DNA from: a virus
Taxonomy: Duplodnaviria; Caudoviricetes
Strand: one strand, 5' to 3'
Length of the DNA stretch: 38,820 nucleotides
Virus record (IMG/VR): IMGVR_UViG_3300050161_000104
Location: 1 to 38,820 of that record
Shown here piece after piece: positions 9,729-35,733 of this stretch (positions are counted from its first letter, which is position 1; each line of letters opens with the position of its first letter). The position numbers and the translations under genes were made by a program. Below the pieces are notes generated by a model. The model saw nothing but the letters and a program-made list of their open reading frames with translations, was not told the origin of the DNA and ran no database searches.

Positions 9729-11798
9729 ATGGCATCGGTGCTTGAATCCATTATCCAGCCCGATGAGAACGCCATAACGGCGCATCTCGATATGCTGTTC
9801 ACGCCGCTGATGGGGGATTATCCGCGCGGCCTGATCGAACTGCGCTACGGCAGTCCCACCCCCAACAAATCCGCCTATTTCAACATCCGCAAGGACGGCA
9901 TTGCTGATGCAACCGCGTTCGCCGCTGGTCGCTCGCGTGCTGGCGATAACGTGTATGTCGGCGTCAACCCGCGCAAGCATAATGTGGACTTGCGCGGGTC
10001 CGCCTCTGATACGGACGTGGAACTGGCGGTCTGGCAGTTTGCAGATATTGATAAAGCGGAGAGCCTGGACGGGCTTGGCGCGAAACTGCGCACGCTGCCA
10101 GTGTTCTATTCGATCAACACCGGGACCACCCCGCACCGCCGCCCGCACCTGTATTGGCTGCTAGAGGAACCAGTCACCAACCTTGCCGCATGGACCGAAC
10201 GCCAGCGCGGGATCGCAGCTGCACTTGGCGGGGACGCGGTAATCAACCCCTCGCGGATAATGCGGCTTGCGGGCACGGTCAACTTCCCGCCACAGCACAA
10301 GTTGCAGCGCGGTTACGGCGTTGAGGTGGTCACGCTCAAGACCACCTTTGATGATGAACGCGAGACGGTAACGCCGGAACAAGTGGCGGGTGCGTTTCCT
10401 TTGCCCGCCACCCCCGCGCCACTTTACGACAACGCACCAGCGCAGCCGCTACAGGCTGGGCAGAACACGTTGCATGCGATGCGCAGCACCAGTGTGCAAG
10501 ACCTGTTGGACGCCTGCCGTAGCGGGCAAGAATGGCACAACAGCATGATCCGGCTAGTTGCGCACCTTGCGGGCAAGGGCCGCACCAGTGCCGAGATCAT
10601 GGCACTAGCCGAACATATCACTTTGCCGGGTTACACCGTGGCGCAAACGCAGCGGGATATGCGGGTAGCATTGAACGGTGCGCGCACCAAATATGATATG
10701 CCGGAGCCGGAAGGTGACCCGGTGGAGGCCGAGGAAGCCAAACGCGAACCGGGTGACAGCATCTTTCAGATGTTCGATATTGACGAACTCGAAGCCATGC
10801 CGCCGCCTGAGTGGCTGGTTAAGGACACGATAGCGCAGCAAGGCTTGACCGTGCTGTATGGTGATCCGGGCGCGGGCAAATCGTTCATCGCCATCGATAT
10901 GGCCCTACGGCTTGCACATGGCATGGATTGGCACGGCACAGAGGCCAAGGCTACCGGGGTGCTGTATATCGCCGGGGAGGGCGTGCACGGGCTTGGAAAG
11001 CGTGTGCAGGGCTGGCGTAGGCATCACAAGATGGAGGGCATTGAAGCGCCGTTTCTGGTGTTGCCCGTGGCCGTGCACCTGCTGGATGATAAGCAGCGCA
11101 ACAAGCTGCTACGCACTATTGACGCGGCCATGGAACGGGCGGGGTTCGCCATTGGCTTGATCGTGATTGACACCGTGAGCCGCGCATTGGCCGGTTCCGA
11201 TGAAAACGGGCAGGAAGCTATGGGCGCGTTTGTTGCTGCCTGCGATCAGGTGCGCTTGCACGCGGGCGGTGCGGTCATTGGCGTGCATCACAGCGGCAAG
11301 GATAAAGACCGGGGGATGCGTGGCAGCACGGTGCTGCTGGGGGCCTGCGATGCTTCGATCCAGGTTAGTAAGTCGGCAACGCTGGTGACGCTGAAAACGG
11401 AAAAGCAAAAAGATGCGGAGGAGGCCGCGCCAATGATGTTCACCATGGAAACCGTGGCTTGGGCCAAGGGCTTTGAACCAGAGCAAACCACCTTGGTGCC
11501 CAAAAAATCAGCATCACAAGAGATGCCAGAAAGGGCCGCGATAACCCGCGATCAAATTGCAAAAGCGTTCGGCATTTTAGCTGATGCGTGGGGTGATGGC
11601 AGGCCACTTTCGCACCGGATCGAGACCACCAGAGATGGCCGTTACGCACCTCGGATATTGGCAAGCAAGCTGGGCGGGGATCCGGGGCAATGGGCCGAAC
11701 TGGTCGCTGGCTGGCTGGAAAATGACTGCCTCGGAACTGAGATCGTGAACAAGAATACCAAACAGAAAGGGCTAAAGGTGATCAATGCAATCGTCTGA
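9729..11798 (+). CDS. Primase-helicase (RepB-type primase N-terminus plus RecA-like AAA_25 helicase)
   Basis: VYVGVNPR, ADID, PHLYWLL and NPSRIMRLAGTVN primase motifs; Walker A GDPGAGKS, Walker B LIVIDT, VHHSGKD...RGS. Confidence 0.9.
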   Translation: MASVLESIIQPDENAITAHLDMLFTPLMGDYPRGLIELRYGSPTPNKSAYFNIRKDGIADATAFAAGRSRAGDNVYVGVNPRKHNVDLRGSASDTDVELAVWQFADIDKAESLDGLGAKLRTLPVFYSINTGTTPHRRPHLYWLLEEPVTNLAAWTERQRGIAAALGGDAVINPSRIMRLAGTVNFPPQHKLQRGYGVEVVTLKTTFDDERETVTPEQVAGAFPLPATPAPLYDNAPAQPLQAGQNTLHAMRSTSVQDLLDACRSGQEWHNSMIRLVAHLAGKGRTSAEIMALAEHITLPGYTVAQTQRDMRVALNGARTKYDMPEPEGDPVEAEEAKREPGDSIFQMFDIDELEAMPPPEWLVKDTIAQQGLTVLYGDPGAGKSFIAIDMALRLAHGMDWHGTEAKATGVLYIAGEGVHGLGKRVQGWRRHHKMEGIEAPFLVLPVAVHLLDDKQRNKLLRTIDAAMERAGFAIGLIVIDTVSRALAGSDENGQEAMGAFVAACDQVRLHAGGAVIGVHHSGKDKDRGMRGSTVLLGACDASIQVSKSATLVTLKTEKQKDAEEAAPMMFTMETVAWAKGFEPEQTTLVPKKSASQEMPERAAITRDQIAKAFGILADAWGDGRPLSHRIETTRDGRYAPRILASKLGGDPGQWAELVAGWLENDCLGTEIVNKNTKQKGLKVINAIV

Positions 11799-16965: not shown

Positions 16966-17191
16966 CGAGGCCGACTTCAAGGAATGGCTGGCGGGGCCTG
17001 TCACCGAATGGGTGATCGCGTGCATGCGCAAGGCGGCGGCGCGGCAACAGGCAGAATGGCTGGCGCTGGCATGGGGCGGCAACTTGGACCCGTTATTGCT
17101 CAACGAAGCGCGGGTTAGGGCGGATTGCTATTTGGCGATCCCGGATTGTTCATTTGAAGACTGGAAGGCTATCGATGATACCGAAGATTGA
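16955..17191 (+). CDS. Conserved hypothetical protein after portal (FKEWLAGPVTEW)
   Basis: GTG start at 16955 with AAGGGAG RBS. Confidence 0.7.
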   Translation: MQPDEADFKEWLAGPVTEWVIACMRKAAARQQAEWLALAWGGNLDPLLLNEARVRADCYLAIPDCSFEDWKAIDDTED

Positions 17192-17513
17192 CGATTGCGC
17201 GCCGGGGTTAGCCCCGATGGGTTATAACGTGCTGGTGGCGCTAGACGTGGTGGAAGAGGTAACGCTTGGCGGGATTATCCTGCCGGGCAGGCATATCGAA
17301 CGGGAAAACGGCGCGTCCGAAAAGGGGCGGCTCGTGGCGAAGTCCGATATGGCTTTTTGCGGCGGCGATTGGGGCGGCGCTCCTGTCCCCGATGTTGGCG
17401 AAGTTGTGCTGTTCCAGCGTTATGCGGGAACCGAGTTTGAGGGCCAAGATGGCAAGAAATACCGCATTATCGCGGATAGTGACTTGAAAGGAATTTTCCA
17501 TGGCAACGCCTAA
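17175..17513 (+). CDS. groES: GroES-like co-chaperonin
   Basis: PMGYNVLV, T.GGIILP mobile loop, VGEVVLFQRYAGTEF, YRIIADSDL. Confidence 0.88.
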   Translation: MIPKIDDCAPGLAPMGYNVLVALDVVEEVTLGGIILPGRHIERENGASEKGRLVAKSDMAFCGGDWGGAPVPDVGEVVLFQRYAGTEFEGQDGKKYRIIADSDLKGIFHGNA

Positions 17514-23849: not shown

Positions 23850-24470
23850 ATGGCTTTGTTCAGCACCATCGGTTCGATCATCAACGCCAAGTCGCAGAAC
23901 AAGCAGGCGGCGAAGGCGGGCGAAATCGCGACCCAGAACAACACGGCGAACAATGCCCTTGCGCAGGGCATATTCAACACCAATCAGGCCAATCTCACCC
24001 CGTATATGAACGCGGGGACGCAGCCGCTTAGCCTGATGCAAGGCGCGTTGGGGTATGGCGATCAGGGCGCTTACAGGGGGGCGTTCCAGAATTTCATCAA
24101 CAACAGCGATTATGGGTTCCAGCAACAGCAGGGCATGGATACGCTTTCTAGCCAAGCATCCGGCGGCGGATGGCTGCAATCGGGTGCGGCACTGCAAGAG
24201 GGCGAACGGTTCAAGCAGAACCTGCAAAGCGGCTACCGGCAGGAATATAACAACATGCTCGGAAATCAGCAGGCGTTGGGTCTTTCTGGTGCGTCGGCAC
24301 TGGCTGGCGTTAGCCAGAACTACACCAACACAGTGAGCGCGAACAACAACCTTGGCGCACAGGGGGCGGCGAATGCCTTGCTTGCGCGGCAAAACCCGCT
24401 TGCGAACGGGCTGGCTAGTTATGGCGGGGCGCTGCAAGGCATGTTGCCCGGTCTGGGAGGTATGTTCTGA
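23850..24470 (+). CDS. Ejection (DNA transfer) protein, P22 gp7-like
   Basis: N/Q/G/A-rich; PYMNAG, YGFQQQQG, G.LQSGAAL motifs. Confidence 0.75.
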   Translation: MALFSTIGSIINAKSQNKQAAKAGEIATQNNTANNALAQGIFNTNQANLTPYMNAGTQPLSLMQGALGYGDQGAYRGAFQNFINNSDYGFQQQQGMDTLSSQASGGGWLQSGAALQEGERFKQNLQSGYRQEYNNMLGNQQALGLSGASALAGVSQNYTNTVSANNNLGAQGAANALLARQNPLANGLASYGGALQGMLPGLGGMF

Positions 24471-25291
24471 TGTCGGAAATCAACTTTGGGCTGCTGCAAA
24501 ACGGGCAGAGCGGCTTTCAGAACGCGCTCTCTAACGGCCTGCGGGCGGGGGCTGCATTTTCGGGCATGATGCAACAGCGGGAGGAAGCACAGCGCCGCAA
24601 TGCGCTTTCCACCTATGCTGCGAACCCCACCCGTGAAGGCTTGGGCGCGCTGGCGCAGTATCAGCCGGAAGCGGCGATACAAGAACGCGGGCGGTTCGAT
24701 CAGCAGGACCAACAGCAACAGACGCAGTCGCGCGAGCAATTGCCGGTTATGATCCGCCTATTGGATTCTGCAACCGATGAGGCGGGTTGGGACCGGGCTG
24801 TTCAACAGGCCCAGCAATATGGGTTTGACGTTAGCCGCGTCCCGCAGACGTTCGATCCGGCATGGCGCGATAGCACGCGGCAAATAGCGAACGCTATGCA
24901 CACTATGCCGCCGCAAGAATTAACGACTGTGGCGCAAAATGTTATGGCCGCGCTTCCAACGGCAAACCGTAGTGTAGACGACCCCATGTTCATTGCGGCG
25001 ATGGGGCGCGCATTGTCGCAAGCAACGCCGGTTGAGCCGGGCGGGCGCGTTATCTCGCGCAACCCGATTACCGGCGAAACCACAGACCTTGTGCTGCCGG
25101 GGAATGGGCCTGGCGGCGCGTCGCCAGAAAAAGCACCCGGACCGAGCGATATCCCGCAAGATGCCATCGAAGCCTTTCTGCGCGGCGAAGGAACGGCGGC
25201 TCAATTCGATGAGGTATTCGGGCTGGGTGCGAGCGCCAGAGTGATGGGAGGTGCCGGTAGCAATGCCGGTGGCGGCTTTCCGGGGCGTTGA
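24470..25291 (+). CDS. Ejection (DNA transfer) protein, gp20-position
   Basis: Q-rich helical protein between the gp7-like and gp16-like genes. Confidence 0.65.
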   Translation: MSEINFGLLQNGQSGFQNALSNGLRAGAAFSGMMQQREEAQRRNALSTYAANPTREGLGALAQYQPEAAIQERGRFDQQDQQQQTQSREQLPVMIRLLDSATDEAGWDRAVQQAQQYGFDVSRVPQTFDPAWRDSTRQIANAMHTMPPQELTTVAQNVMAALPTANRSVDDPMFIAAMGRALSQATPVEPGGRVISRNPITGETTDLVLPGNGPGGASPEKAPGPSDIPQDAIEAFLRGEGTAAQFDEVFGLGASARVMGGAGSNAGGGFPGR

Positions 25292-25520
25292 TGGTGAGCG
25301 TGTGACAAGCGGATACCGGACGCCGGAACATAACCGTGAGGTCGGCGGGGTTGCCAACAGCTATCACACGCGCCGCGATGCGCAGGGCAACCCGTTGGCG
25401 CGTGACAGCGTGCCCCCGCGCGGGATGAGCCTTGCTGAATACGCGCGCCAGTTGCGCGCCGCCAACCCGCATTTGCAGGTGATCCTAGAGAGCGATCACG
25501 TCCATATGGAGCCACGCTGA
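25263..25520 (+). CDS. Peptidase M15-like zinc D-Ala-D-Ala peptidase domain; separate gene or +1 frameshift extension of the upstream ejection protein
   Basis: VTSGYRTPEHNREVGGVANSYH...ARD...DHVH motifs; +1 frame relative to 24470-25291 with a 29-nt overlap. Confidence 0.8.
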   Translation: MPVAAFRGVDGERVTSGYRTPEHNREVGGVANSYHTRRDAQGNPLARDSVPPRGMSLAEYARQLRAANPHLQVILESDHVHMEPR

Positions 25521-25521
25521 T

Positions 25522-28500
25522 ATGCCCGACAACCCCTTTGCTAAATATGGTCAGCCATCGGCACAAGCCACGCCGGTCTATTCGGGCGTTAACCCAGATG
25601 ACGCACGCGCTGATGCGTCTGCGGCGCGTGCCGACCGTGCGGCGGCGGATGCGACTGCGCAGCGCGTAACATCGAACGATATTGCGTCCCGCCGTTTGGG
25701 AATTTCAGAGCGTGACGAGGCGCGCACACTAAACCGCGAATCGCAGGGTTTTGATGCAACCGAAGGCGAACGGAAATCGGGCGCTTTCCTTATCCGCGCT
25801 TATGGCGCGGCTGATACCTATGACCGCACCGGCGTTGGCGCGCGGTCCTATATCGGGCAGGCGCTCGAAAACAACGCGCCGGACCTGCAAAACCAATTTA
25901 CCGAATGGCCCGTCGGTAACAGCCCGGAACGGCAGGTGGCACAATCGGCGCAGAATGAATTTATCGCGGCAACACTCCGCCAAGATTCTGGCGCGGCCAT
26001 ACCCCCGGATGAATTGGAGCGCCAGCGCCGTATTTACTTCCCCATGCCCGGCGAGGGTGAGGAGGTTATTGAACAAAAGCGCCAAGCCCGCGCACGGGCC
26101 ATCGCAGGGCTTGAGCAATCAGCAGGCAGACTGCGTGAGAGTTCGCAAGCGGAATATAACGCGCTAGAGGTGGCCGCTGGACGCCGTTCCCGAAATGACG
26201 TGCCGTTCCCGCGCCGCGATGATGCGCCAGTTGCGGGCATGCAAACACCCCCTGGCGGCGGTTCGCCTCCCGGTGGCGGCACACGCGCGCCCACGCAGCG
26301 AGAAATATATGCCAACGGTATCCAGTTCGGCATGGATGGTTCGCAGGACCGTGGGTTTGATCGCGCGCAATACATGCGAGAAACTTATGGCTTGGATGGT
26401 GACGACGAGGACCTAATTGTTGGGTTCTACACAGCCAATAGCGGCAACGATGGGTTAACCCCCGAAGGAATGCGCCGCTGGTATGAAGCCAACGGGATCA
26501 ATGGACCTGTCATAGGTTATCAGGCGGCAGTCGACCGTTTGAAGTCGACTGCCGCCGGCACTCGCTGGAGGAATATCAACACGGCTGACGCCGAAGCCGC
26601 GCGCAATGCGGAACTGGACGCAGCGATTGAACAGCGCGGGCTTAACCCTGAAAGCCAAGGAGACGCATTCGGCGCTGGGGCGGTGCAAGGATCAACGCTT
26701 GGCGGTGCAGACGAACTAGGCGGCGTCATTGGCCGCGATGGGGCAATCTCCGCTCTGTTAAACGGGGGTAATATGGTCGATGGATATCAGCGCGAAAGAG
26801 ATATCCAGCGGCGGATGAGCGAACGGGCCACGGATGCCCATCCGTGGGCTACGCTTGGCGGCAACATGGTTGGCGGTCTTGCCACTGGCGGTCTTGGCAT
26901 GGAAGCTGGCGGGGTAAGAACCGCGTCCGGCGCGGCGCGTATTGGTGCGCTTGAGGGCGGCATTACGGGCTTTAACAGCGGGGAGGGTGCAGGCGGGAGT
27001 CTTGGCGGCGCGGCACTCGGCGCGGCTGGCGGTGCAGCACTGGGCGGCGCGCTGCAATATGCAGGCTCGCGCGCGGCCAATACTCTCTCGCAGAGATTGG
27101 AGCGCCGCGCCGCTGATCGGGCCGGTATTTCTGGCAGGGCGAATGCTCTTGCCGATGCTGGTTTGGCTGAAAATGTGACGGTGAACCGGGCAATGGTTAA
27201 CCCTCAATCAAACAACGCTGTAACACGTGCTGATGCTTCATATGTGGGAGGCCCCACGATTCAGCGCGAGATGAACGCCGTCGCTGGGCAGGTCGAAGCC
27301 GCCGTTACAAACAATCTTGGGAGGGGAGGCCGCGCCCTTGACGATGTGGCGCTAGGCGATAGCGTCGAGAATGCGGCGTTGCGGGCGATTAAGACCACTG
27401 GGGCAACCGCACGGCGGCGCTATGATAGAGCGGAGCAATTGGCGGCAGACGCCCGCGTGACACCCTATGAAAGCGCGAATGCCGCCCGCGATATGATCCG
27501 CGTCCTATCGGAAACACCCTCAACCAACAAAGAGGAGATTAAGTTTCTGCGTAGTATTGCATCCGATTTGGGCACAGATTTATCTGTAGGCTCCTTGCGC
27601 CGGATGCGCACGCAATTGCGTAAGCGGATCAGTCGCGGGGAGTTAACCTTTGGCGAAGATGAGGCCCGCGTTTTGGGGATCATGGACACAGCGGCGGCTG
27701 ATATCCGCACAGGGCTTGCCGCACAAGGCAAGCATGAGGCCGCGCGGGCGTTCGATACAGCAGATCGTGCATATTCCGCACGGATGGAATATATCGGAGG
27801 CGTCCTGCAAAAGGTGTTGGGCAAGCGTAGCGCGAACCGAACTGCGGAGGCGATGGCAAGGCAGGTCCGGTCAATGACCCGCAATGATGAGCGGGGATTG
27901 CGACAGCTGTATGCCTCAATGGAACCGGGGGAGGCGCTAGACGTATCAGCTACGTTCGCGGCAGAATTAGGGAGGCGCGGCGGTAATGGCGAAAGCGCGT
28001 TTTCCATCCCGATATTCAACACGCAAACGGCGGGCATGTCGGAGGGAACCTTGCGGACATTGTTCGGTGAGGGAGGCGCTCAATCGGTGAAAAACCTCCG
28101 ACTGTTGGGCCGCGAAGTTGATCGGGTCATGTCGTCAATGAACAGCCGCACCAGTAAGAGTGGCGTCGCTGGCAACGCACAACAATGGCTATTTAGTTTG
28201 CTGGGCAGCGCGGGCGTGGGTGCCGCCAGTAGCGGCACGGGCGGGGCGTTCGTGGCGGGAACCGCCGGGCTTGCCGCAAAGTCCGGCACAGAATTATTGT
28301 CCGCGCGCGCGCTTATGTCCCCGCGCATCACTAAGTGGCTGTTGCAAGCGCCGCCGTCATCATCCCCTGCCGCCATTAATCAATGGTTCGGGCGACTGCG
28401 ATCAATTGCCGCGCGCGAGCCTGCATTGGCAACAGACGTGAGCGCAATTGAGCGGACGATTATGTCATGGGCCAACGACAACGGCGCGACCGTAACCAAT

Positions 28501-28554
28501 GCAGCCGCGCATCCCGCACAGCAAAACCAGAATGGGCAACCACCCGCACGCTAG
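25522..28554 (+). CDS. Large ejection (DNA transfer) protein, P22 gp16-like position
   Basis: 1010 aa, Ala/Gly-rich helical; NPFAKY start, LRQDSGAAI...YFPMPGE motif and Gly-rich hydrophobic stretches. Confidence 0.75.
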   Translation: MPDNPFAKYGQPSAQATPVYSGVNPDDARADASAARADRAAADATAQRVTSNDIASRRLGISERDEARTLNRESQGFDATEGERKSGAFLIRAYGAADTYDRTGVGARSYIGQALENNAPDLQNQFTEWPVGNSPERQVAQSAQNEFIAATLRQDSGAAIPPDELERQRRIYFPMPGEGEEVIEQKRQARARAIAGLEQSAGRLRESSQAEYNALEVAAGRRSRNDVPFPRRDDAPVAGMQTPPGGGSPPGGGTRAPTQREIYANGIQFGMDGSQDRGFDRAQYMRETYGLDGDDEDLIVGFYTANSGNDGLTPEGMRRWYEANGINGPVIGYQAAVDRLKSTAAGTRWRNINTADAEAARNAELDAAIEQRGLNPESQGDAFGAGAVQGSTLGGADELGGVIGRDGAISALLNGGNMVDGYQRERDIQRRMSERATDAHPWATLGGNMVGGLATGGLGMEAGGVRTASGAARIGALEGGITGFNSGEGAGGSLGGAALGAAGGAALGGALQYAGSRAANTLSQRLERRAADRAGISGRANALADAGLAENVTVNRAMVNPQSNNAVTRADASYVGGPTIQREMNAVAGQVEAAVTNNLGRGGRALDDVALGDSVENAALRAIKTTGATARRRYDRAEQLAADARVTPYESANAARDMIRVLSETPSTNKEEIKFLRSIASDLGTDLSVGSLRRMRTQLRKRISRGELTFGEDEARVLGIMDTAAADIRTGLAAQGKHEAARAFDTADRAYSARMEYIGGVLQKVLGKRSANRTAEAMARQVRSMTRNDERGLRQLYASMEPGEALDVSATFAAELGRRGGNGESAFSIPIFNTQTAGMSEGTLRTLFGEGGAQSVKNLRLLGREVDRVMSSMNSRTSKSGVAGNAQQWLFSLLGSAGVGAASSGTGGAFVAGTAGLAAKSGTELLSARALMSPRITKWLLQAPPSSSPAAINQWFGRLRSIAAREPALATDVSAIERTIMSWANDNGATVTNAAAHPAQQNQNGQPPAR

Positions 28555-28653: not shown

Positions 28654-30369
28654 ATGGCCGCTGAATTGTTCACCATTTCCCCTCGCGCGACCAACGCGAA
28701 TGCGGCCCCCCTTTCTGGGGCGGTGATATCATTCTACCTTGCGGGGAGCCTCACGTCTGCGCCCGCTTACGCCGACTATGAGTGCACCACCGAACATGGG
28801 GGCACTGTCACGGCGGATAGCGGGGGGCTATTCCCACCGATCTATTTGCCCGCTGATACCAGTTACCGCGCGATACTGAAAACAGCGGGCGGCTCAACTA
28901 TTGAGGACTTGGACCCCGCCAATTCAGCATATCTCTCGGCAATCACGGCGGCACCATCGGTTGAATATTACGTTAGCGCCGATGATGAAATTGGGGATGA
29001 TGGGAACGCTGGCACCGAACTAAGTCCGTTTCGGACCATCCAAAAGGCATATGACAGCCTACCACGCTTTCTTGAGCGGCAATGCGTTATCTGGTTAGAA
29101 CCGGGGGTTCATAGCGGGAACTACCTCGCGGGAAATTCCGACAAGTCGCTAATGCCGCGCAGTGCGGTGCTATTTTGCCGTGGGCATTACACTGGCTCAC
29201 GCACGCAGAACAATTCTGGCACGCTTTCAGGGCCGGTCGTCATCAAGTCTAACGGCGGCACGGCGGCTGATACGTTCATCGAAGTCACAACCGGTTTTGA
29301 TTATGGCATCTATGCCACCGGATCAATTGACATCGCGATTCAGGGCATCACCATCCGAACTGCGGTGGCTTGCGCGGCGTTGCTGGTGGTCCACCGGGGG
29401 GCTTATGTCCACACATCCGACCTGTCATTGCTCGGAAATGGGTATAATGTTGGGTATCTCGCCTATTCTGAAGCGCGAGCGGCGATGCTGGAATATGGCG
29501 GGCTGGCCGGGGTTATCGATGGCGGGACGGCGGGCGTAGCATCGGCGACCAAGGGTATTTCAACCCTCGCAGGCGGAACGGCGGTTATCTCGGGCACCCC
29601 GCTGATCAAGCGATGCGGACAGGCGCTGTATTGCGAGCCGGGGACTTACATGAAGATGCTGCTCAGCCCCTCGGCGCATCACACGTTGGCGGACAACACC
29701 AACACGCTGGCAATTTATGCCGAAATGGGCGCGGTGCTTAATTTGCGCGGGGCTTCCACTACTGCCCGCGTGCTGTTCGACGCGGCGGTGGAAAGCTACG
29801 GCGCGGTCGTCAATTGCACGTTTGTTGATTTTCTCAAGTCACTCACGACCGATGGCGGCGAATGGCGCATGAACACTTGCGGCTATGACTACCAATGGTC
29901 GGTTTACGATACGAAAATCTGGTTGCGCAACTCGAACAGCTACAAGCAGGGTTCGGGCACCAGCCTAAGCACCACAACGCAGCCGATGCGGATCGAACAC
30001 GGCGACAAGCCCTATTTGGAAGGCACCTGCGTTCTTTTGGGCAACTCCAGCGGGAAGCCGCAATTCAAGGTGACGGACTGGATCGCTACCGCAAACGGGC
30101 AGGTTTTTGACCCGGACGCGAACTGCAATATCTATTTCATGCGCGGTGATAGCGCGAGCCGCACGGGCTGCGGAATCTCGGCCGCGAATGGCTGGGAAGG
30201 CCGTGTGATCGAGGTTTTCAACCGAACGACAAATACGGTCACATTGGCCAGCGGTGTGGGGGCGACCGGGTTGAACAATACCAATCTTGAAGTTGGCGCG
30301 CGGAATGCGGCGGGCGTGGTGCGCAAGGCTTCATTCGTTTTCACCAGCGGGACTTGGCACGGGAACTGA
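28654..30369 (+). CDS. Tailspike / receptor-binding protein 1 (virion-attachment domain plus probable beta-helix)
   Basis: N-terminal PLSGAVISFYLAGS...ADSGGLFPPIYL domain; YYVS...GDDGNAGT..SPFRTIQKA pectin-lyase-like start. Confidence 0.75.
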   Translation: MAAELFTISPRATNANAAPLSGAVISFYLAGSLTSAPAYADYECTTEHGGTVTADSGGLFPPIYLPADTSYRAILKTAGGSTIEDLDPANSAYLSAITAAPSVEYYVSADDEIGDDGNAGTELSPFRTIQKAYDSLPRFLERQCVIWLEPGVHSGNYLAGNSDKSLMPRSAVLFCRGHYTGSRTQNNSGTLSGPVVIKSNGGTAADTFIEVTTGFDYGIYATGSIDIAIQGITIRTAVACAALLVVHRGAYVHTSDLSLLGNGYNVGYLAYSEARAAMLEYGGLAGVIDGGTAGVASATKGISTLAGGTAVISGTPLIKRCGQALYCEPGTYMKMLLSPSAHHTLADNTNTLAIYAEMGAVLNLRGASTTARVLFDAAVESYGAVVNCTFVDFLKSLTTDGGEWRMNTCGYDYQWSVYDTKIWLRNSNSYKQGSGTSLSTTTQPMRIEHGDKPYLEGTCVLLGNSSGKPQFKVTDWIATANGQVFDPDANCNIYFMRGDSASRTGCGISAANGWEGRVIEVFNRTTNTVTLASGVGATGLNNTNLEVGARNAAGVVRKASFVFTSGTWHGN

Positions 30370-30370
30370 T

Positions 30371-32911
30371 ATGGCTATTTTCCTACCCGCACAGACCCCG
30401 GCTATAGACGGCAATGGCGTGCCGTTGGCTGGGGCCGTGTGGGAGTTCTATCACGGCAATAGCAGGACGCCCGCCGCAACGGACCGGGGAGAAACTGTGT
30501 CGGCAGATGTCGATGGCGTGTTCCCGGATATTACGCTTGATGCGGATTTCACCTACCGGGCGGTTCTTAGCGATATCGGGGGCAAGATGATCCGCGATAT
30601 TGGCGCGGTCGCCGAAAGCCTGTTCGCGCCTTCGGCAAAGCCCGCAACGGACGATAATGTTGTTCAAGCTGGCGCGGTGTGGAAGTTCTACACGACCGCC
30701 ACCACTACCCCGCAAACAGTGTATTCCGATGATGATCTGGCGACCCCGCTAGGTTGGCGGGTGGAGGCTGACGCTGACGGCAATTTCCCCGCCATTTATC
30801 TCGATGACGGGGTTGCATACCGCGCTGTTTTAGAGGCGGTGGGCGGGGCGCAATTGGGCGTGATCGACCCAGTCACGTTCGACAATATGTGGCTATATCT
30901 CAATCCGAGCGCGGCCATCCCGCCTGCGGAACTTCTCCCCAGTGCCGGATACACCGGCACGGCGGGGAGCGGCTTTGGCGGGGGTTTCGGCGCGGTTCCG
31001 ACCGACCCTACGCGAACGACCGCTAAGCCAGCCATGCGGATGCTGACGCCTACGAACCAGTATTTCACCGACACGATTGTAGTTGGCGTTTTCGCGGCGG
31101 CGAACAATGCCGGTTCGATGTTGAGTAATCTCGGTCTGCAAAAGGTTGTCTGCCATTATGAGGGCGTGGCGCGCGATATCGCATCGCCCACCGTGTATAG
31201 TTTCAACGATGTAAACGGCGTGGCGCGCTCCTATCTGGGTTGGTGGGTCACGCTCAAAAAGCCGACTGGGATCACTGGCCACGCGCGCGTTTATTTCGAG
31301 GCGGTTCCGCTTGATCCAGCGATGCAGCGCCGGGTGATCGGCCCTTGCCAATTCAGCCCGCAGGCGGCGGTGAATGATATTGCGCTGGCGATTACGCCAT
31401 CGTTGGCCGCTGTGACGGGGGTTCGTTATCAGACGATCCTCGCGGCGATGGATTATTGCCGCACGCAGTCAAAGCAAAGTCCGCTGATCACGATCACCGA
31501 AGCCGGGCTGTATGATGTGGGCAACATGAGTTTCACCTATCAGCCCAACAGCTACTTCACGATACAGGCCAGCGTGCCCGTGACGATTGGCAAGGCGAGT
31601 TATACGACCGATGCAGCGATGGCATTTCGCCCAGCGTGGGACGGCGTCCATTTGCGCGGCTCTAACATCACGCTCAACCTGACACAATCGACCGGCTTCT
31701 ACCATGAGGCGGGCGATGAGTTTACCACCACCACGCCGGTTCGGCATTGGTTCGACGGGATCACCATTCTGGACAGCGCCCCAGATGCACTGATCAGGAA
31801 GGCGGCAAAGCCGAATATCTACACCGCGCGCAATTACCCGTGGTTCACCGAATGCACGATCAACGGCGCGCGCAATGGCGGTGTGCGGGCGATGCTGCAC
31901 AGGGGCACGGCCATGGCCAACGGCACGGGCGACGCCATGTCGGATTCTGCCTGCATCGTGGGCGGTTCGGTTTCGAACTGGGATAGCGCGCCAGCTCGCA
32001 CGAACATCAACGCCATGACCGTGCAATACACCGGCGGCGGGGCGACGGCGACGCTTTCGCTTGCGGGCGGCAACAGCGCGAGCAGCCGGGTCATGACGGC
32101 CAAGGTCGGCGGTTCGACTGTTGGAACCAAGACATTGCTGGCGAGCGAGGCGGCATTTATCGCCAGCACCGATTACGAAGTCTCGGACGTGGTGACATGG
32201 CTCAACACCTTGTCGGGCTGGAGCGCGACACTGCTTGACGACACACGGCAGGCGGTATGTCTTGGCGCGCCGGGCCTGCCGGGATCGTGGACCGATGTTA
32301 ACGTGAAAACGGCGGCGGTCACTTTCTATACGTGGATCGATGACCACTGCGATGTTTACCAGTCCTACGTGAACAGCGAAAATGTGATTTGCGCGGGGCT
32401 GACCACTTTCGGCAATGATACGCAGAATATATTCCTCTACGAAACCAACCACCGGGACATGCTGTTCCTGAATTGCGCGATGGACAACCAGACCGGGGGC
32501 GTGCTGCAAAGCCAGTTGGGCGGCACGCATAGCCATGTGGTGGTGGCACATTGCAGCTTTGGCCAGCAGACCTTGAGCCTGCGGACAGACGGCGCGGGGG
32601 CGTATAAATACAACCCGGATGCCTATTGCCTTGTTGCCAACAATGCTGGCCCGGCTTTGGTGTGGTCAAGCACGCCGGACACCGATTTGACGATCAAGGG
32701 CAACCATCTTTTCACCGGCGCAAGCACGCCGTCCGGTTCGACAGGCACAACGATCGGCGGGACAAAAGCGACGCTGTTTGCCGATGCTGGCGCGGGCAAT
32801 TTCACGCCTGCGGGGGCATTGTTGACCAATTTGAAAACGCCGGTAGTGTCGCGCGATATGGCGGGCACGGTGCGCGGCACAACTGATGCGGCAGGAGTTA
32901 AGGCGATATGA
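30371..32911 (+). CDS. Tailspike / receptor-binding protein 2 with duplicated N-terminal attachment domain
   Basis: Two tandem GAVWxFY...AD.DG.FP.I.L...YRAVL...GG repeats, then a long beta-rich (beta-helix-like) body; start re-called at 30371. Confidence 0.75.
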   Translation: MAIFLPAQTPAIDGNGVPLAGAVWEFYHGNSRTPAATDRGETVSADVDGVFPDITLDADFTYRAVLSDIGGKMIRDIGAVAESLFAPSAKPATDDNVVQAGAVWKFYTTATTTPQTVYSDDDLATPLGWRVEADADGNFPAIYLDDGVAYRAVLEAVGGAQLGVIDPVTFDNMWLYLNPSAAIPPAELLPSAGYTGTAGSGFGGGFGAVPTDPTRTTAKPAMRMLTPTNQYFTDTIVVGVFAAANNAGSMLSNLGLQKVVCHYEGVARDIASPTVYSFNDVNGVARSYLGWWVTLKKPTGITGHARVYFEAVPLDPAMQRRVIGPCQFSPQAAVNDIALAITPSLAAVTGVRYQTILAAMDYCRTQSKQSPLITITEAGLYDVGNMSFTYQPNSYFTIQASVPVTIGKASYTTDAAMAFRPAWDGVHLRGSNITLNLTQSTGFYHEAGDEFTTTTPVRHWFDGITILDSAPDALIRKAAKPNIYTARNYPWFTECTINGARNGGVRAMLHRGTAMANGTGDAMSDSACIVGGSVSNWDSAPARTNINAMTVQYTGGGATATLSLAGGNSASSRVMTAKVGGSTVGTKTLLASEAAFIASTDYEVSDVVTWLNTLSGWSATLLDDTRQAVCLGAPGLPGSWTDVNVKTAAVTFYTWIDDHCDVYQSYVNSENVICAGLTTFGNDTQNIFLYETNHRDMLFLNCAMDNQTGGVLQSQLGGTHSHVVVAHCSFGQQTLSLRTDGAGAYKYNPDAYCLVANNAGPALVWSSTPDTDLTIKGNHLFTGASTPSGSTGTTIGGTKATLFADAGAGNFTPAGALLTNLKTPVVSRDMAGTVRGTTDAAGVKAI

Positions 32912-35733
32912 TTGGACTTGGCTTAGTGCTTGGTTTTTCGCGCGGTCCATCCGGCCCCGCTGTGCCCACTATTCAGATATCCGCGTCGAGTGTGGCCGAT
33001 AGCGCCAGCAATGGTTCTAGTGTGGGGACGCTGACCGTCTCGAACGGGACCGGCACCTACACTTTCACCGAGATTGCCACGCTCAATTCCAGCTTTGCAG
33101 TGGCGAGCGGCGGGGCCGTCACTACCACGGGCACGCTGACAGCGGGCACTTCCACCTTGAATGTGCAGGCGACCAATGGCGTCGATACGCCGATTACGCG
33201 CGCGTTTCCCATGACTGTGACGGCAGCGGACACGACCGCGCCCACCCTGTCTGCCCCGACCGATACGCAGACCGGCGCGACAACCGCCACGCTGACTGTG
33301 GACACGAACGAGGGTAATGGCACGCTGTATTGGTATATCTCGACCAGTGCGGTTGCCCCGACGGCGGCGAACCTCAAGGCGGGCACTGGCGCGGTTGCAA
33401 GCGGCACACAGGCCGTTTCCAGCACTGGCACAAAAACCGTCAATGCAACCGGGCTGACGGCCTCCACGGCCTACTACAGCTACTTCCTGCACCGCGATGC
33501 TGCGGGCAATGACAGCACCATTGCCAGTGCGGATGGGTTCACGACCGCCGCTGCGGCATCCGCGTTCGTGGCACAGATGGATGCAACCGGGCAATCGAAT
33601 GAGCAGGGCGGCGGCAGCGGCGATAGCGTCACGGGTTATGGATATGGTCCGGGCAACAGCGGCGGGCACACGCCCATGCGGACGATGGTTGGCACCGGCT
33701 CCGATACCTACGGGGCCACCACATACGCCTTTGAGCAACTGGCCTATATCAACACCGGGCAGACCATCGGCGGCGTGCTGGGGCCGCGCGGCGAACGCAA
33801 GATTACCACGGCCGGGGCCTTCATCGGAACCGGCGGTGTTTCTGCGCTGTATGGCATTGCGGAAACGGTAAAGGCGGGGAATTATCTCGCAGGCGCGCAA
33901 GAGGCGATCTATTTCGGGGCGGCTTTTGCCGGCCAGCTTGTCACCGACCAAATGGTCGCCTTCGCTGGCACACGCTGGCAGGGCTGGCGCAACGCAATGA
34001 AGTTCGGGGTGCGTCCTTATTACAAGTCGATGGCCGATGCAGGTATCCCGATTTATCGCCAGTTCCACGGCTATTCGCAGATCGAAGCGGAAATATCTGC
34101 CGGGCAGAATGTGGTTGCTGCCGGGTTGCCTCCATCAACCACCTACTACGCATATTACCTGCACCGTTCTACGGGCGGCACAGACAGTGCGGTCGCTTCG
34201 GCGGGGGACTTCACGACTTCGGCGGCAAGCACTTCCATCGTTTTCCCAACAATCACCGCCGAATTGAGCGGCACGATCTATTGGTATGTCAGCACCAGTG
34301 CGACGCCGCCGCTCGCCACTGTTCTGAAAATGGGCACCGGCGCTAATTCGTTCGGCAACAAGAACCTGTTTTCGGATGCGCTGGACCTGCTCGCATGGCC
34401 TGCCCGGTTCCACGCGAACCGGCTGCACCGAGCATCGAAGTTCGGCCACACCGCCTACATGCCCCTGACACAGCCGATCCCCGTGCTCACCTCAAGCGGC
34501 GGGCCTGCCGAAGCCTACACCTATTACGGCATCAACACGATCATGCCGCAGGTTGCCCGTTGGCGGGTGACGGTGAACGACCTTGACGGGAACCTTGGGA
34601 CTTGGGAGGATTTGGCGGGCCAAGGTTCCGATCAGTATCGCCATGACGGCACGGTGATCCTCAAGCACAACTTCGCCAATGCCTCGTTCGATGGCGTCCA
34701 CTTCCTCATGACGCAGCACCTTGCGCTGGGTAAGGCGAGGATCAATGCGGTCAAGGCGCTGACGAGCACCACGCAATATCACACGCAGCACCCGATTACC
34801 CGCTGCGCTCCGGTGTTCCTCGATACGCCCACGGCGGGCACTACCACGGGCACAACCGCGCCCATCACCGTCCGCTGTGATGAGGCAGCGACAATTAACG
34901 TGCTGGCGGTAGCGGCCAATTCTACGGCTCCAAGCATGGCGGCTGTAAGGGCCGGGCTGCAATTGGCTCACAACAGCGTCAATGCGCAGGGTGATCCGCA
35001 ATCACAGGTGCTGACTGTCACCGGACTGACCGCTGGGACCACCTATGACCTCTACCTGTTGCCGGAGGACCCGGACGGATACGGTCATTATGGCCACTCA
35101 ATGAGCGTAATCGAAGATGTGGCGACGCTGGCAGATACGGTTCCTGCGCAATTCAACACCACGTTCAAGGTGGCCACGGGCGGCGCGAACAGCGTCACCT
35201 ATTCCAACAATGACCGCACGGTTGTCCGCTCTGGCGGGTCGCCCACGGGCAACGTCGCGTTCAAGGCTGTGGGCGAAAAGACCTCCGGGCTGTGGCATTC
35301 TGCTGTCAAGTTCTTGGGCACGAACCCATCGCAATGGGGGTTGTTCGTGGCGACACTGACCAATGCCGGGGCATCATCCACCCCGCGCATTTCGGTGGCC
35401 TCGTCCGGTATCAAATACCACAACGGAACGACCGACACGACGCTGGTTTCAGCGGCAACACTTGGCACAATCCCGGCGGGGACGATCCTGCAAATCTGTG
35501 AGGACCACACGGCTAAACAGGCGTGGTTTGCCAAGAACGGCACATGGTATCCTAATTCACCTTCCGGCGGCGCGGGCTTTGATATGGCCGCTGTGGTTGA
35601 TGCCAGCGGCGGCACGCTTCTCGCGGGGATCGTGGGCGCAACCGATGGAGCGGGGTTCCAGCTTCTCACTACGGCGGATACGGCAGATTACCCAACGCCG
35701 CCTAGTGGTTTTGCGGCAAGGACGACGGCGTGA
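32908..35733 (+). CDS. Multidomain head fibre: Rcc01080-like N-terminus, cadherin-like and FN3-like domains, SGNH-type esterase, C-terminal lectin/SPRY-like domain
   Basis: MIGLGLVLG start; ISASSVADSASNGSSVGTL; GLTASTAY and GLTAGTTYDLY; GQSN and DGVH motifs. Confidence 0.65.
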   Translation: MIGLGLVLGFSRGPSGPAVPTIQISASSVADSASNGSSVGTLTVSNGTGTYTFTEIATLNSSFAVASGGAVTTTGTLTAGTSTLNVQATNGVDTPITRAFPMTVTAADTTAPTLSAPTDTQTGATTATLTVDTNEGNGTLYWYISTSAVAPTAANLKAGTGAVASGTQAVSSTGTKTVNATGLTASTAYYSYFLHRDAAGNDSTIASADGFTTAAAASAFVAQMDATGQSNEQGGGSGDSVTGYGYGPGNSGGHTPMRTMVGTGSDTYGATTYAFEQLAYINTGQTIGGVLGPRGERKITTAGAFIGTGGVSALYGIAETVKAGNYLAGAQEAIYFGAAFAGQLVTDQMVAFAGTRWQGWRNAMKFGVRPYYKSMADAGIPIYRQFHGYSQIEAEISAGQNVVAAGLPPSTTYYAYYLHRSTGGTDSAVASAGDFTTSAASTSIVFPTITAELSGTIYWYVSTSATPPLATVLKMGTGANSFGNKNLFSDALDLLAWPARFHANRLHRASKFGHTAYMPLTQPIPVLTSSGGPAEAYTYYGINTIMPQVARWRVTVNDLDGNLGTWEDLAGQGSDQYRHDGTVILKHNFANASFDGVHFLMTQHLALGKARINAVKALTSTTQYHTQHPITRCAPVFLDTPTAGTTTGTTAPITVRCDEAATINVLAVAANSTAPSMAAVRAGLQLAHNSVNAQGDPQSQVLTVTGLTAGTTYDLYLLPEDPDGYGHYGHSMSVIEDVATLADTVPAQFNTTFKVATGGANSVTYSNNDRTVVRSGGSPTGNVAFKAVGEKTSGLWHSAVKFLGTNPSQWGLFVATLTNAGASSTPRISVASSGIKYHNGTTDTTLVSAATLGTIPAGTILQICEDHTAKQAWFAKNGTWYPNSPSGGAGFDMAAVVDASGGTLLAGIVGATDGAGFQLLTTADTADYPTPPSGFAARTTA

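Follow-up and report, generated by a model that had tools for sequence, protein, structure and literature searches.

Introduction

Few natural +1 frameshift signals are, to our knowledge, known in bacteria. UUU_Y is a +1-prone site in bacteria, a Shine–Dalgarno (SD) sequence that stimulates +1 shifting acts at a distance of 3 nt, and the SD hybrid lasts through several translocation steps (PMC5009743). A stable upstream hairpin provides about 60% of the +1 stimulation of an SD on 70S ribosomes, and only at CUUUGA with UGA in the A site and RF2 absent (PMC6321510). The effect of an upstream hairpin on −1 shifting drops with distance (PMC3639245). In the initiation of T4 gene 38, a hairpin shortens the SD spacing from 22 to 5 nt (PMC3014915). 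According to the authors of PRFect, a general forward motif has yet to be identified (PMC10885494). Among podophage ejection proteins, gp20 of P22 extends the channel into the periplasm and gp16 of T7 carries a transglycosylase (PMC8954989), and about 30 copies of gp20 are injected by P22 (PMC8402733).

In this study, a candidate +1 frameshift signal was analysed in a stretch of viral DNA of 38,820 bases (hereafter the window), which is the record IMGVR_UViG_3300050161_000104 (completeness estimate, 89%). A first-pass annotation of the window had proposed that an SD, a hairpin and a UUU_C site append a peptidoglycan peptidase to an ejection protein. The comparative analysis presented here indicates that a conserved cassette very probably programs a +1 ribosomal frameshift, by which a 273-aa ejection protein would be accompanied by a 349-aa form carrying a predicted peptidoglycan peptidase.

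Materials and methods

Three scans of viral contigs were performed, each of which left one part of the signal free. The SD, loop, spacer and TTTC were fixed in the stem-free scan, with the stem and the reading frame free (46 loci, including a few duplicates). The downstream-free scan fixed the SD and the stem and returned 103 distinct hits from 120 loci in 21 of the 64 parts of the collection (approximately one-third). The SD-free scan fixed the loop, spacer and TTT (80 distinct hits from 104 loci). A generic detector, which required only TT at the site, returned 111 distinct rows; four were dropped as noise (L018, L060, L286 and L312), leaving 107. All cassette counts refer to sequences related by descent, not to independent events. 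The sequences of the covariation set likewise share descent and were picked by a detector demanding at least six pairs, and the stem-free scan is therefore the cleaner evidence for the stem.

A profile (A1) was constructed from the seven closest relatives of the M15 domain and run on viral, metagenome and genome loci, and the best 80 matches per collection were used. Sixty distinct A1 loci scored at least 60, with the window included and pattern-fetched loci excluded. Cargo domains were grouped into six BLAST clusters (66, 17, 14, 5, 4 and 1 members).

Results

Ejection locus and candidate signal in the window

A P22-like podophage gene set was recognised in the window by Pfam and PHROG matches, comprising terminase, portal, coat, gp4-like adaptor, gp10-like head closure and acetyltransferase genes, followed by the ejection genes. 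A GroES/Cpn10-like co-chaperonin gene (17154–17513; Pfam E 2.5e-9, PHROG E 7.3e-9) adjoins the portal gene. Three large ORFs (571, 874 and 941 aa; 28654–35733) lie after the ejection block and have no Pfam match and at most one weak PHROG tail match; these are probably tail or receptor-binding proteins. The features of the ejection block and the signal are as follows:

23850–24470, + strand: gp7-like DNA ejection protein (phrog_598, E 4.9e-16)
24470–25291, + strand: frame-0 gene of 273 aa, probably encoding the ejection protein of the P22 gp20 position (position and family profile)
25247–25251, + strand: internal Shine–Dalgarno-like GGAGG, in codons GGA GGN (returned in the SD-free scan)
25252–25271, + strand: hairpin of 8 bp with a GCAA loop (25260–63), directly 3′ of GGAGG (covariation and stem-free scan)
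25263–25265, + strand: non-conserved +1-frame ATG that lies within the loop and the 3′ arm
25272–25276, + strand: spacer of 5 nt that includes the E-site codon; in the family, its sequence varies and its length is 4–5 nt
25277–25280, + strand: predicted shift site UUU_C, P-site tRNA-Phe moving from UUU to UUC (scan leaving TTTC free)
25278–25520, + strand: +1-frame ORF, 80 aa, Peptidase M15-like zinc domain (Pfam PF08291)
25289–25291, + strand: frame-0 stop TGA, four codons past the site
25522–28554, + strand: 1010-aa gene, gp16-like by position only (PHROG matches of unknown function)

The 273-aa gene is located between the gp7-like gene and the large 1010-aa gene, as the second gene of a gp7-gp20-gp16 block after gp10. 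The Pan3 gene at the position equivalent to the 1010-aa gene is annotated as 'ejection protein'. No direct Pfam or PHROG match was obtained for the 273-aa protein; its family profile matches Pam1_14, annotated as 'DNA/protein translocase of injectosome' (hhalign 96.7%, E 4e-10), and the relative Pan3_12 has a weak match to phrog_2534 (E 0.002).

Translation reproduced the product sizes of the first-pass annotation, namely, 273 aa unshifted and 349 aa after a +1 shift, with the in-frame TTT (25277–79) as codon 270 of the 273-aa gene. GGAGGT (25247–52), TTT, TGA and ATG 25263 are all located exactly where they had been placed, and the +1 ORF runs to 25520, leaving 1 nt before the ATG of the following gene (25522), as annotated. 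The hairpin had been described as 7 bp around GCAA; its arms (25253–59 and 25264–70) are confirmed, and a further pair (25252–25271) extends the stem to 8 bp. Once this pair is counted, the spacer between the extruded SD and the slippery codon is 5 nt instead of the proposed 6 nt or so. An indel error, which had been named as a refuting outcome, is unlikely, because contigs of two studies besides the probable source span the junction with zero differences (X2, 25102–25334, and X3, 25216–25366, at low depths of 3.7 and 3.1). A search of sequencing runs listed no RNA data.

The full signal pattern, which was drawn from this very site, occurs once in the window and in none of 100 shuffles. The local fold at the hairpin is unremarkable (z = −0.21), with equally good folds in 77 of 200 shuffles; support therefore rests on comparison, and one sequence could not settle the question. 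Three further in-frame UUU_Y codons are present within the 273-aa gene, so a UUU_Y site alone is not special. Rfam gave no match over the cassette at E values up to 5 (window 24900–25700). In the minimum-energy fold of 25246–25281, the SD pairs with the UUUCC site and lengthens the hairpin. Pairing of the SD with the UUUY site occurs in the local minimum-energy fold of 61 of the 107 elements, and both sides are invariant and thus beyond covariation; this pairing might hide the SD from new initiation.

Composition of the cassette family

The cassette is composed of GGAGG, an adjoining hairpin of 6–9 bp, 4–5 nt and an in-frame UUU_Y, and is present in 107 distinct sequences. The stem (mean, −12.5 kcal/mol) begins 0–1 nt after GGAGG and ends 4–5 nt before TTT. 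The linear distance from SD to site is 22 or 25 nt and falls to 4–5 nt only with the hairpin looped out. The GNRA tetraloop noted in the window is present there and marks only one stem class (46 of 107 with the geometry of 8 bp and a 4-nt loop), not the family in general. Covariance model R2, built for the second stem class, misses the window and R1 misses Pam1, so the two classes need separate models.

The shift site is TTTC in 104 sequences and TTTT in three, in which a stop follows directly; an A-site stop occurs in 3 of the 107 alleles. E-site and A-site codons vary and are mostly common (the most frequent A-site codons are CGC, 36, and CAA, 21). The frame-0 tail is 1–4 codons long in 87 of the 102 forward alleles and reaches at most 11 codons, and the next gene starts −8 to +5 nt from the cargo stop in all 92 testable loci. 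Context tblastn detected a homologue of the window gp7, gp10 or gp16 in only 29 of 107 loci, many of which are short or divergent, so an ejection-block context cannot be assigned to every member.

The protein family has 861 representatives at 50% identity. Among the best 150 of these, 103 end in G(G/D/E)-x7/8-F plus 0–11 residues, a count biased by the inclusion of the tail in the profile; the residue after F is P, R, Q or L or the chain ends in 100 of the 103, as UUU_Y predicts. The motif is absent from the other 47. Locus L249 comes from genome G001, titled Sphingomonas cremea; in a sample of 401 genomes of the same family, nine match the ejection-protein profile and four of these have the cassette. 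The cassette is therefore not essential to the protein family, being absent from the 47 proteins, from Pan3 and from five of the nine matching genomes. Four prophage loci (L495, L499, L500 and L502) hold ejection genes without the cassette, and a distinct motif, which we take to be nuclease (SNase)-like, opens their next gene. A scan of viral contigs with the 273-aa protein gave four weak loci, none with a cassette.

Conservation of each part when left free

In the stem-free scan, all seven pairs formed in 37 of the 46 loci, and the other nine formed only 0–3 pairs. The two groups also differed in frame: upstream of the site, the TTT frame was open for 190 codons or more in 37/37 full-stem loci and for at most 125 in the other nine. 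The +1 ORF was at least 76 aa in 35 of the full-stem loci; one of the remaining two was reversed and one was cut by the contig end.

In the downstream-free scan, TTTC was located exactly 5 nt past the core stem in 41 of 42 paired-stem hits with seven inner bases and in 3 of 7 with four inner bases, and in none at other inner lengths. TTTY appeared only at in-frame distances, namely, 25 and 22 nt. When the SD was left free, GGAGG stood at its exact place in 20 of the 22 full-stem hits (one of the others had GGAGA and one was unrelated) and in 0 of the 58 hits with an incomplete stem.

Covariation in the tetraloop class (45 sequences) agrees with these scans. All 360 cells were paired, and all eight pairs showed compensatory double-sided changes (71 in total); slid controls paired at 17–65%. 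None of 500 shuffles scored as high on four of five measures, and the fifth was not significant (38 of 500). The first-pass annotation had set a comparison of relatives as its check, and the outcome is as anticipated there: conservation extends to the SD, the stem and TTTY but not to the ATG.

In the upstream ORFs of M15 loci, GGA opens only 23 of 314 Gly-Gly pairs and TTTY accounts for 90 of 733 Phe contexts; conservation of amino acids, with such scarce DNA forms, does not explain the DNA conservation. One allele (L531) carries the SD variant GGA GAC, which reads Gly-Asp, followed by UUU and then a stop. The Gly-Gly dipeptide is thus dispensable.

Cargo domains

The +1 ORF of the window matches Pfam Peptidase_M15_3 (PF08291) at E 4.2e-9, with 37 bits against a curated cut-off of 23.2. 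Residues H30, D43, H74 and H76 (H 25365, D 25404, H 25497 and H 25503), which we take to be the zinc ligands, are invariant in 8/8 A1 sequences, and the HxH motif is present. Compared with shorter homologues, for example L335, the interval between His and Asp is longer by an insertion of 6 residues. A structure model reached a pLDDT of 71, with residues 10–26 under 50; fold searches with this model gave no significant match (top rows, small alpha/beta domains with Z up to 5.4), and the sole PDB sequence match of the domain was 1LBU (E 0.85). The cargo is, from its sequence, a predicted peptidoglycan peptidase.

At the corresponding junction, each of the seven closest M15 relatives has GGAGG and TTTC together with a hairpin whose sequence differs. 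Among the best A1 matches (60 loci), GGAGG-N22/25-TTTY lies within 90 nt of the M15 domain in 37, and in L090 the cassette is further upstream, ahead of an extra domain. The M15 domain is held in frame in a long protein, with at least 150 residues before it, in 21 loci. The last locus, L182, has neither pattern. Its M15 domain lies in the −1 frame behind C_CCU_UUC, just upstream of the match at 1036, with GGAGG 21 nt before TTT and a weak stem; this reflects either a change to a −1 site or, in a reversed allele, a single base lost in assembly.

The M15 assignment of the first-pass annotation holds in the window, and the cargo of the family is wider. In a set of 30 picked cargo domains, eight matched SLT and seven matched M15 above the Pfam cut-off, and the other 15 had no relevant family. 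NNPG-type cargo matches PHROG endolysin and tape-measure families. In tblastn searches of 50,697 GenBank phages, the window M15 domain matched only nine microvirus records and SLT cargo matched 236 records, and no match was obtained for FKGS-type cargo. Close upstream proteins with differing cargo (L401 and L432 at 76% identity; L005, with M15, and L328, with SLT, at 43%) show that cargo is exchanged at the junction. An unnamed domain of approximately 100 aa is the cargo in P0015 and P0038 (proteins only), L090, L463 and L498. The motif occurs twice in P0015, in frame before the unnamed domain and again at the domain end, which suggests stacked cassettes.

Cassette in a cultured phage

The cultured Pseudanabaena phage Pam1 has a cassette at 11173–11206 with a UUU_U site, followed by a 103-aa +1 ORF (L491:11204–11515). 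A +1 shift at codon 265 of Pam1_14 (TTT at 11203–05) would give a predicted product of 367 aa, compared with 269 aa unshifted. GenBank Pam1_15 covers only the last 49 of the 103 codons, leaving out two residues of the putative zinc site (the first His and the Asp). Pan3, a relative of Pam1, has neither the cassette nor the extra ORF. The main text and one supplement of the Pam1 genome paper contain no gp14, gp15 or peptide entries, and virion mass spectrometry is given there in a figure only (PMC9382816).

Start codons, reversed alleles and in-frame fusions

An improbable alternative is split-SD initiation, in which the hairpin would place GGAGG close to a start codon, and the hydrolase would be translated separately as a small, free protein (from ATG 25263 in the window and from near-cognate codons elsewhere). 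The geometry of SD, hairpin, approximately 5 nt and codon is that of T4 gene 38 (PMC3014915). ATG 25263 lies 11 nt from GGAGG and has a strong SD, the second-strongest SD pairing of the 25 starts scored in the window. Some ATG, GTG or TTG is found near the junction in 65 of the 102 forward alleles. However, the conserved position is occupied by UUU, which is not a start codon. Only 8 of the 102 forward alleles contain an ATG between SD and site, where it arises from an A-U loop-closing pair. In 37 of the 102, the +1 frame lacks ATG, GTG and TTG alike over the stretch that begins at the SD and ends 10 codons beyond the site. A conserved ATG without the signal, which the first-pass annotation had named as contrary evidence, is thus not the pattern found. 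The in-frame fusion of the M15 domain to long proteins in 21 of 60 loci also stands against a free enzyme. A little free M15 may be made from ATG 25263 in the window phage.

Reversed alleles bear on the same question. Five of the 107 (L002, L003, L338, L419 and L435) hold the whole signal with the cargo in frame 0, and their +1 frame closes in 1–4 codons, which stands against split-SD initiation. These alleles include three cargo types and both main stem classes, and the upstream proteins of L002 and L003 are 34% identical; for some of them, a one-base error in assembly is possible. In 7 of 147 stored proteins, an in-frame domain follows the motif. One of the seven, the natural single-ORF protein P0074 (protein only), can be aligned to the predicted 349-aa product with no gap where the two frames join (42% identity over 344 columns). 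L089, L104 and gene 41 of Sphingopyxis phage VSN-002 are also fused in frame and lack an intact signal. In VSN-002 gene 41 (L493:4961–4985), a weak stem remnant is present and the SD and UUU are lost (21.5 bits, rough E 0.03), which is possibly a fossil inside an in-frame fusion. The reversed and fused alleles together fit a device that would make two lengths of one protein, not a start site for a free enzyme.

Discussion

The family has a conserved, re-pairable, in-frame P-site codon and an overlapping +1 ORF that lacks a conserved start and is fused elsewhere, which are the marks of the +1 frameshift class. Two further routes to a fusion were weighed, and both are very improbable. Transcriptional realignment would produce a fusion by normal translation after a nascent hairpin made RNA polymerase drop one base, as in the T5C5 tract of Roseiflexus IS630. 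The distance from the hairpin end to the site end is approximately one RNA:DNA hybrid length (8–10 nt), and a nascent stem-loop is known to stimulate one-base deletion (PMC5009743). However, no T5C5-type tract is present; only three or four Ts occur, and elsewhere the sequence that would form the hybrid varies and is rich in GC. The in-frame position of TTT in all full-stem loci and the restriction to in-frame distances also argue against realignment, in which the invariant SD would have no role.

The second route is a frameshift caused otherwise than by the SD and an extruded hairpin, namely, by a Gly-rich nascent peptide, a pause or ribosome collision, or a −2 slip. The cassette does encode a recognisable GG-x7/8-F tail, and a nascent-peptide effect has been suggested for the UUU site of Mesorhizobium loti msi172 (PMC5009743). 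Against this, base pairing is maintained despite changes in the residues that separate GG from F, L531 replaces Gly-Gly, and the first Gly codon is GGA in 107/107 sequences (partly by construction) compared with a background of 7%. The varying E-site codons imply that −2 re-pairing is not conserved. An assembly indel or a decayed in-frame fusion without programmed function has a negligible probability, since the contigs of two other studies match the junction and 102 distinct sequences, whose cargo belongs to several unrelated families, share the +1 arrangement, although in-frame fusions of the same parts exist.

For the programmed +1 frameshift, we infer the following course. The anti-SD of the elongating ribosome would pair with GGAGG and stay paired as translation proceeds. 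When tRNA-Phe occupies UUU in the P site, the mRNA past the E site would refold into the hairpin, which would cut the effective distance from SD to codon from 22–25 nt to approximately 4–5 nt, near the 3 nt of prfB. The resulting strain would pull the mRNA one base in the 5′ direction, and tRNA-Phe would re-pair on UUC or UUU in the +1 frame. No rare A-site codon would be needed for the shift. The requirement for UGA in the A site and for the absence of RF2 in the reporter system (PMC6321510) counts against this model, as most alleles here have a common sense codon in the A site. Short and long copies would both enter the ejectosome, so that only some subunits carry the wall-cutting domain; the long form may be the minority product, as the first-pass annotation had supposed.

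On a broader reading, which we favour by a small margin, the SD anchor and the co-translationally refolding hairpin would form a single ratchet, able to drive the +1 shift on a sense codon even when the A site is not hungry. The cassette would then be a portable 34-nt plug-in, whose cargo is swapped, whose polarity is flipped and which is perhaps stacked, and which would set the number of enzyme-bearing ejectosome subunits. The reversed alleles would then point to a shift efficiency that is substantial, not trace.

A compact motif with over 100 natural variants defines rules for stem, spacer and site. If the model is true, the cassette is a natural case of the upstream-hairpin effect, which has until now been seen on 70S ribosomes in reporter constructs and is here joined to an SD. 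It becomes testable whether an elongating ribosome holds the SD duplex while a hairpin forms at the exit. The cassette would also explain the mis-annotation of Pam1_15 as a fragment of a start-less ORF and suggests a way in which P22-like phages could load wall-cutting enzymes onto the ejectosome in a fixed proportion; Pam1, as a cultured phage, permits a direct test.

No description of the cassette was found in the full-text literature covered, which takes in few subscription journals, or in the available parts of PMC10885494, PMC3711429, PMC10386132 and PMC9382816. The closest described system is prfB (RF2), with which the cassette shares the +1 direction, an internal SD 5′ of a P-site re-pairing site and the bacterial ribosome (PMC5009743). 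UUU followed by a stop, as in L101, L102, L179, L510 and L531, is a further likeness. The SD of prfB is 3 nt from its codon, whereas here 22–25 nt with a conserved hairpin separate the two; the prfB site is CUU_UGA, with a stop codon in the A site, whereas here the site is UUU_Y (tRNA-Phe) with no A-site stop in 104 of 107 alleles and no autoregulation.

The M. loti msi172-msi171 (FseA) and Yersinia yopN-tyeA genes resemble the cassette in the use of a UUU or UUU_Y +1 site that gives a bacterial fusion protein (PMC5009743). They are regulatory or secretion genes and not virion cargo, and an SD–hairpin stimulator is not mentioned for them in the available sections of that review. Upstream hairpins in engineered and viral contexts (Cho 2013, PMC3639245; Huang 2018, PMC6321510) are alike in having an E-site-adjacent refolding hairpin and spacing-dependent +1 stimulation on 70S ribosomes. 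In those reporters the hairpin replaces the SD and a hungry codon is needed, whereas here the SD and the hairpin are jointly conserved in natural genes. The split ribosome-binding sites of T4 genes 38 and 25 likewise use a hairpin between SD and codon to shorten the spacing (PMC3014915), although this serves initiation on AUG there and lies inside an ORF before UUU here.

Among virion proteins, T7/T3 gp10B, the Listeria phage PSA Cps and Tsh +1 products and Ig-like extensions also provide a short and a C-terminally extended protein from one gene, and such extensions are in or out of frame in different phages (PMC5009743). There, the extended proteins belong to the capsid or tail, the shift occurs at CCC or −1 sites and the stimulators are 3′ elements or stop codons, whereas the present case concerns an ejection protein and a predicted wall hydrolase. 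The cassette resembles prfB in direction and in the use of an SD, yet is not of the prfB type, and is best filed as a new form of programmed +1 frameshifting.
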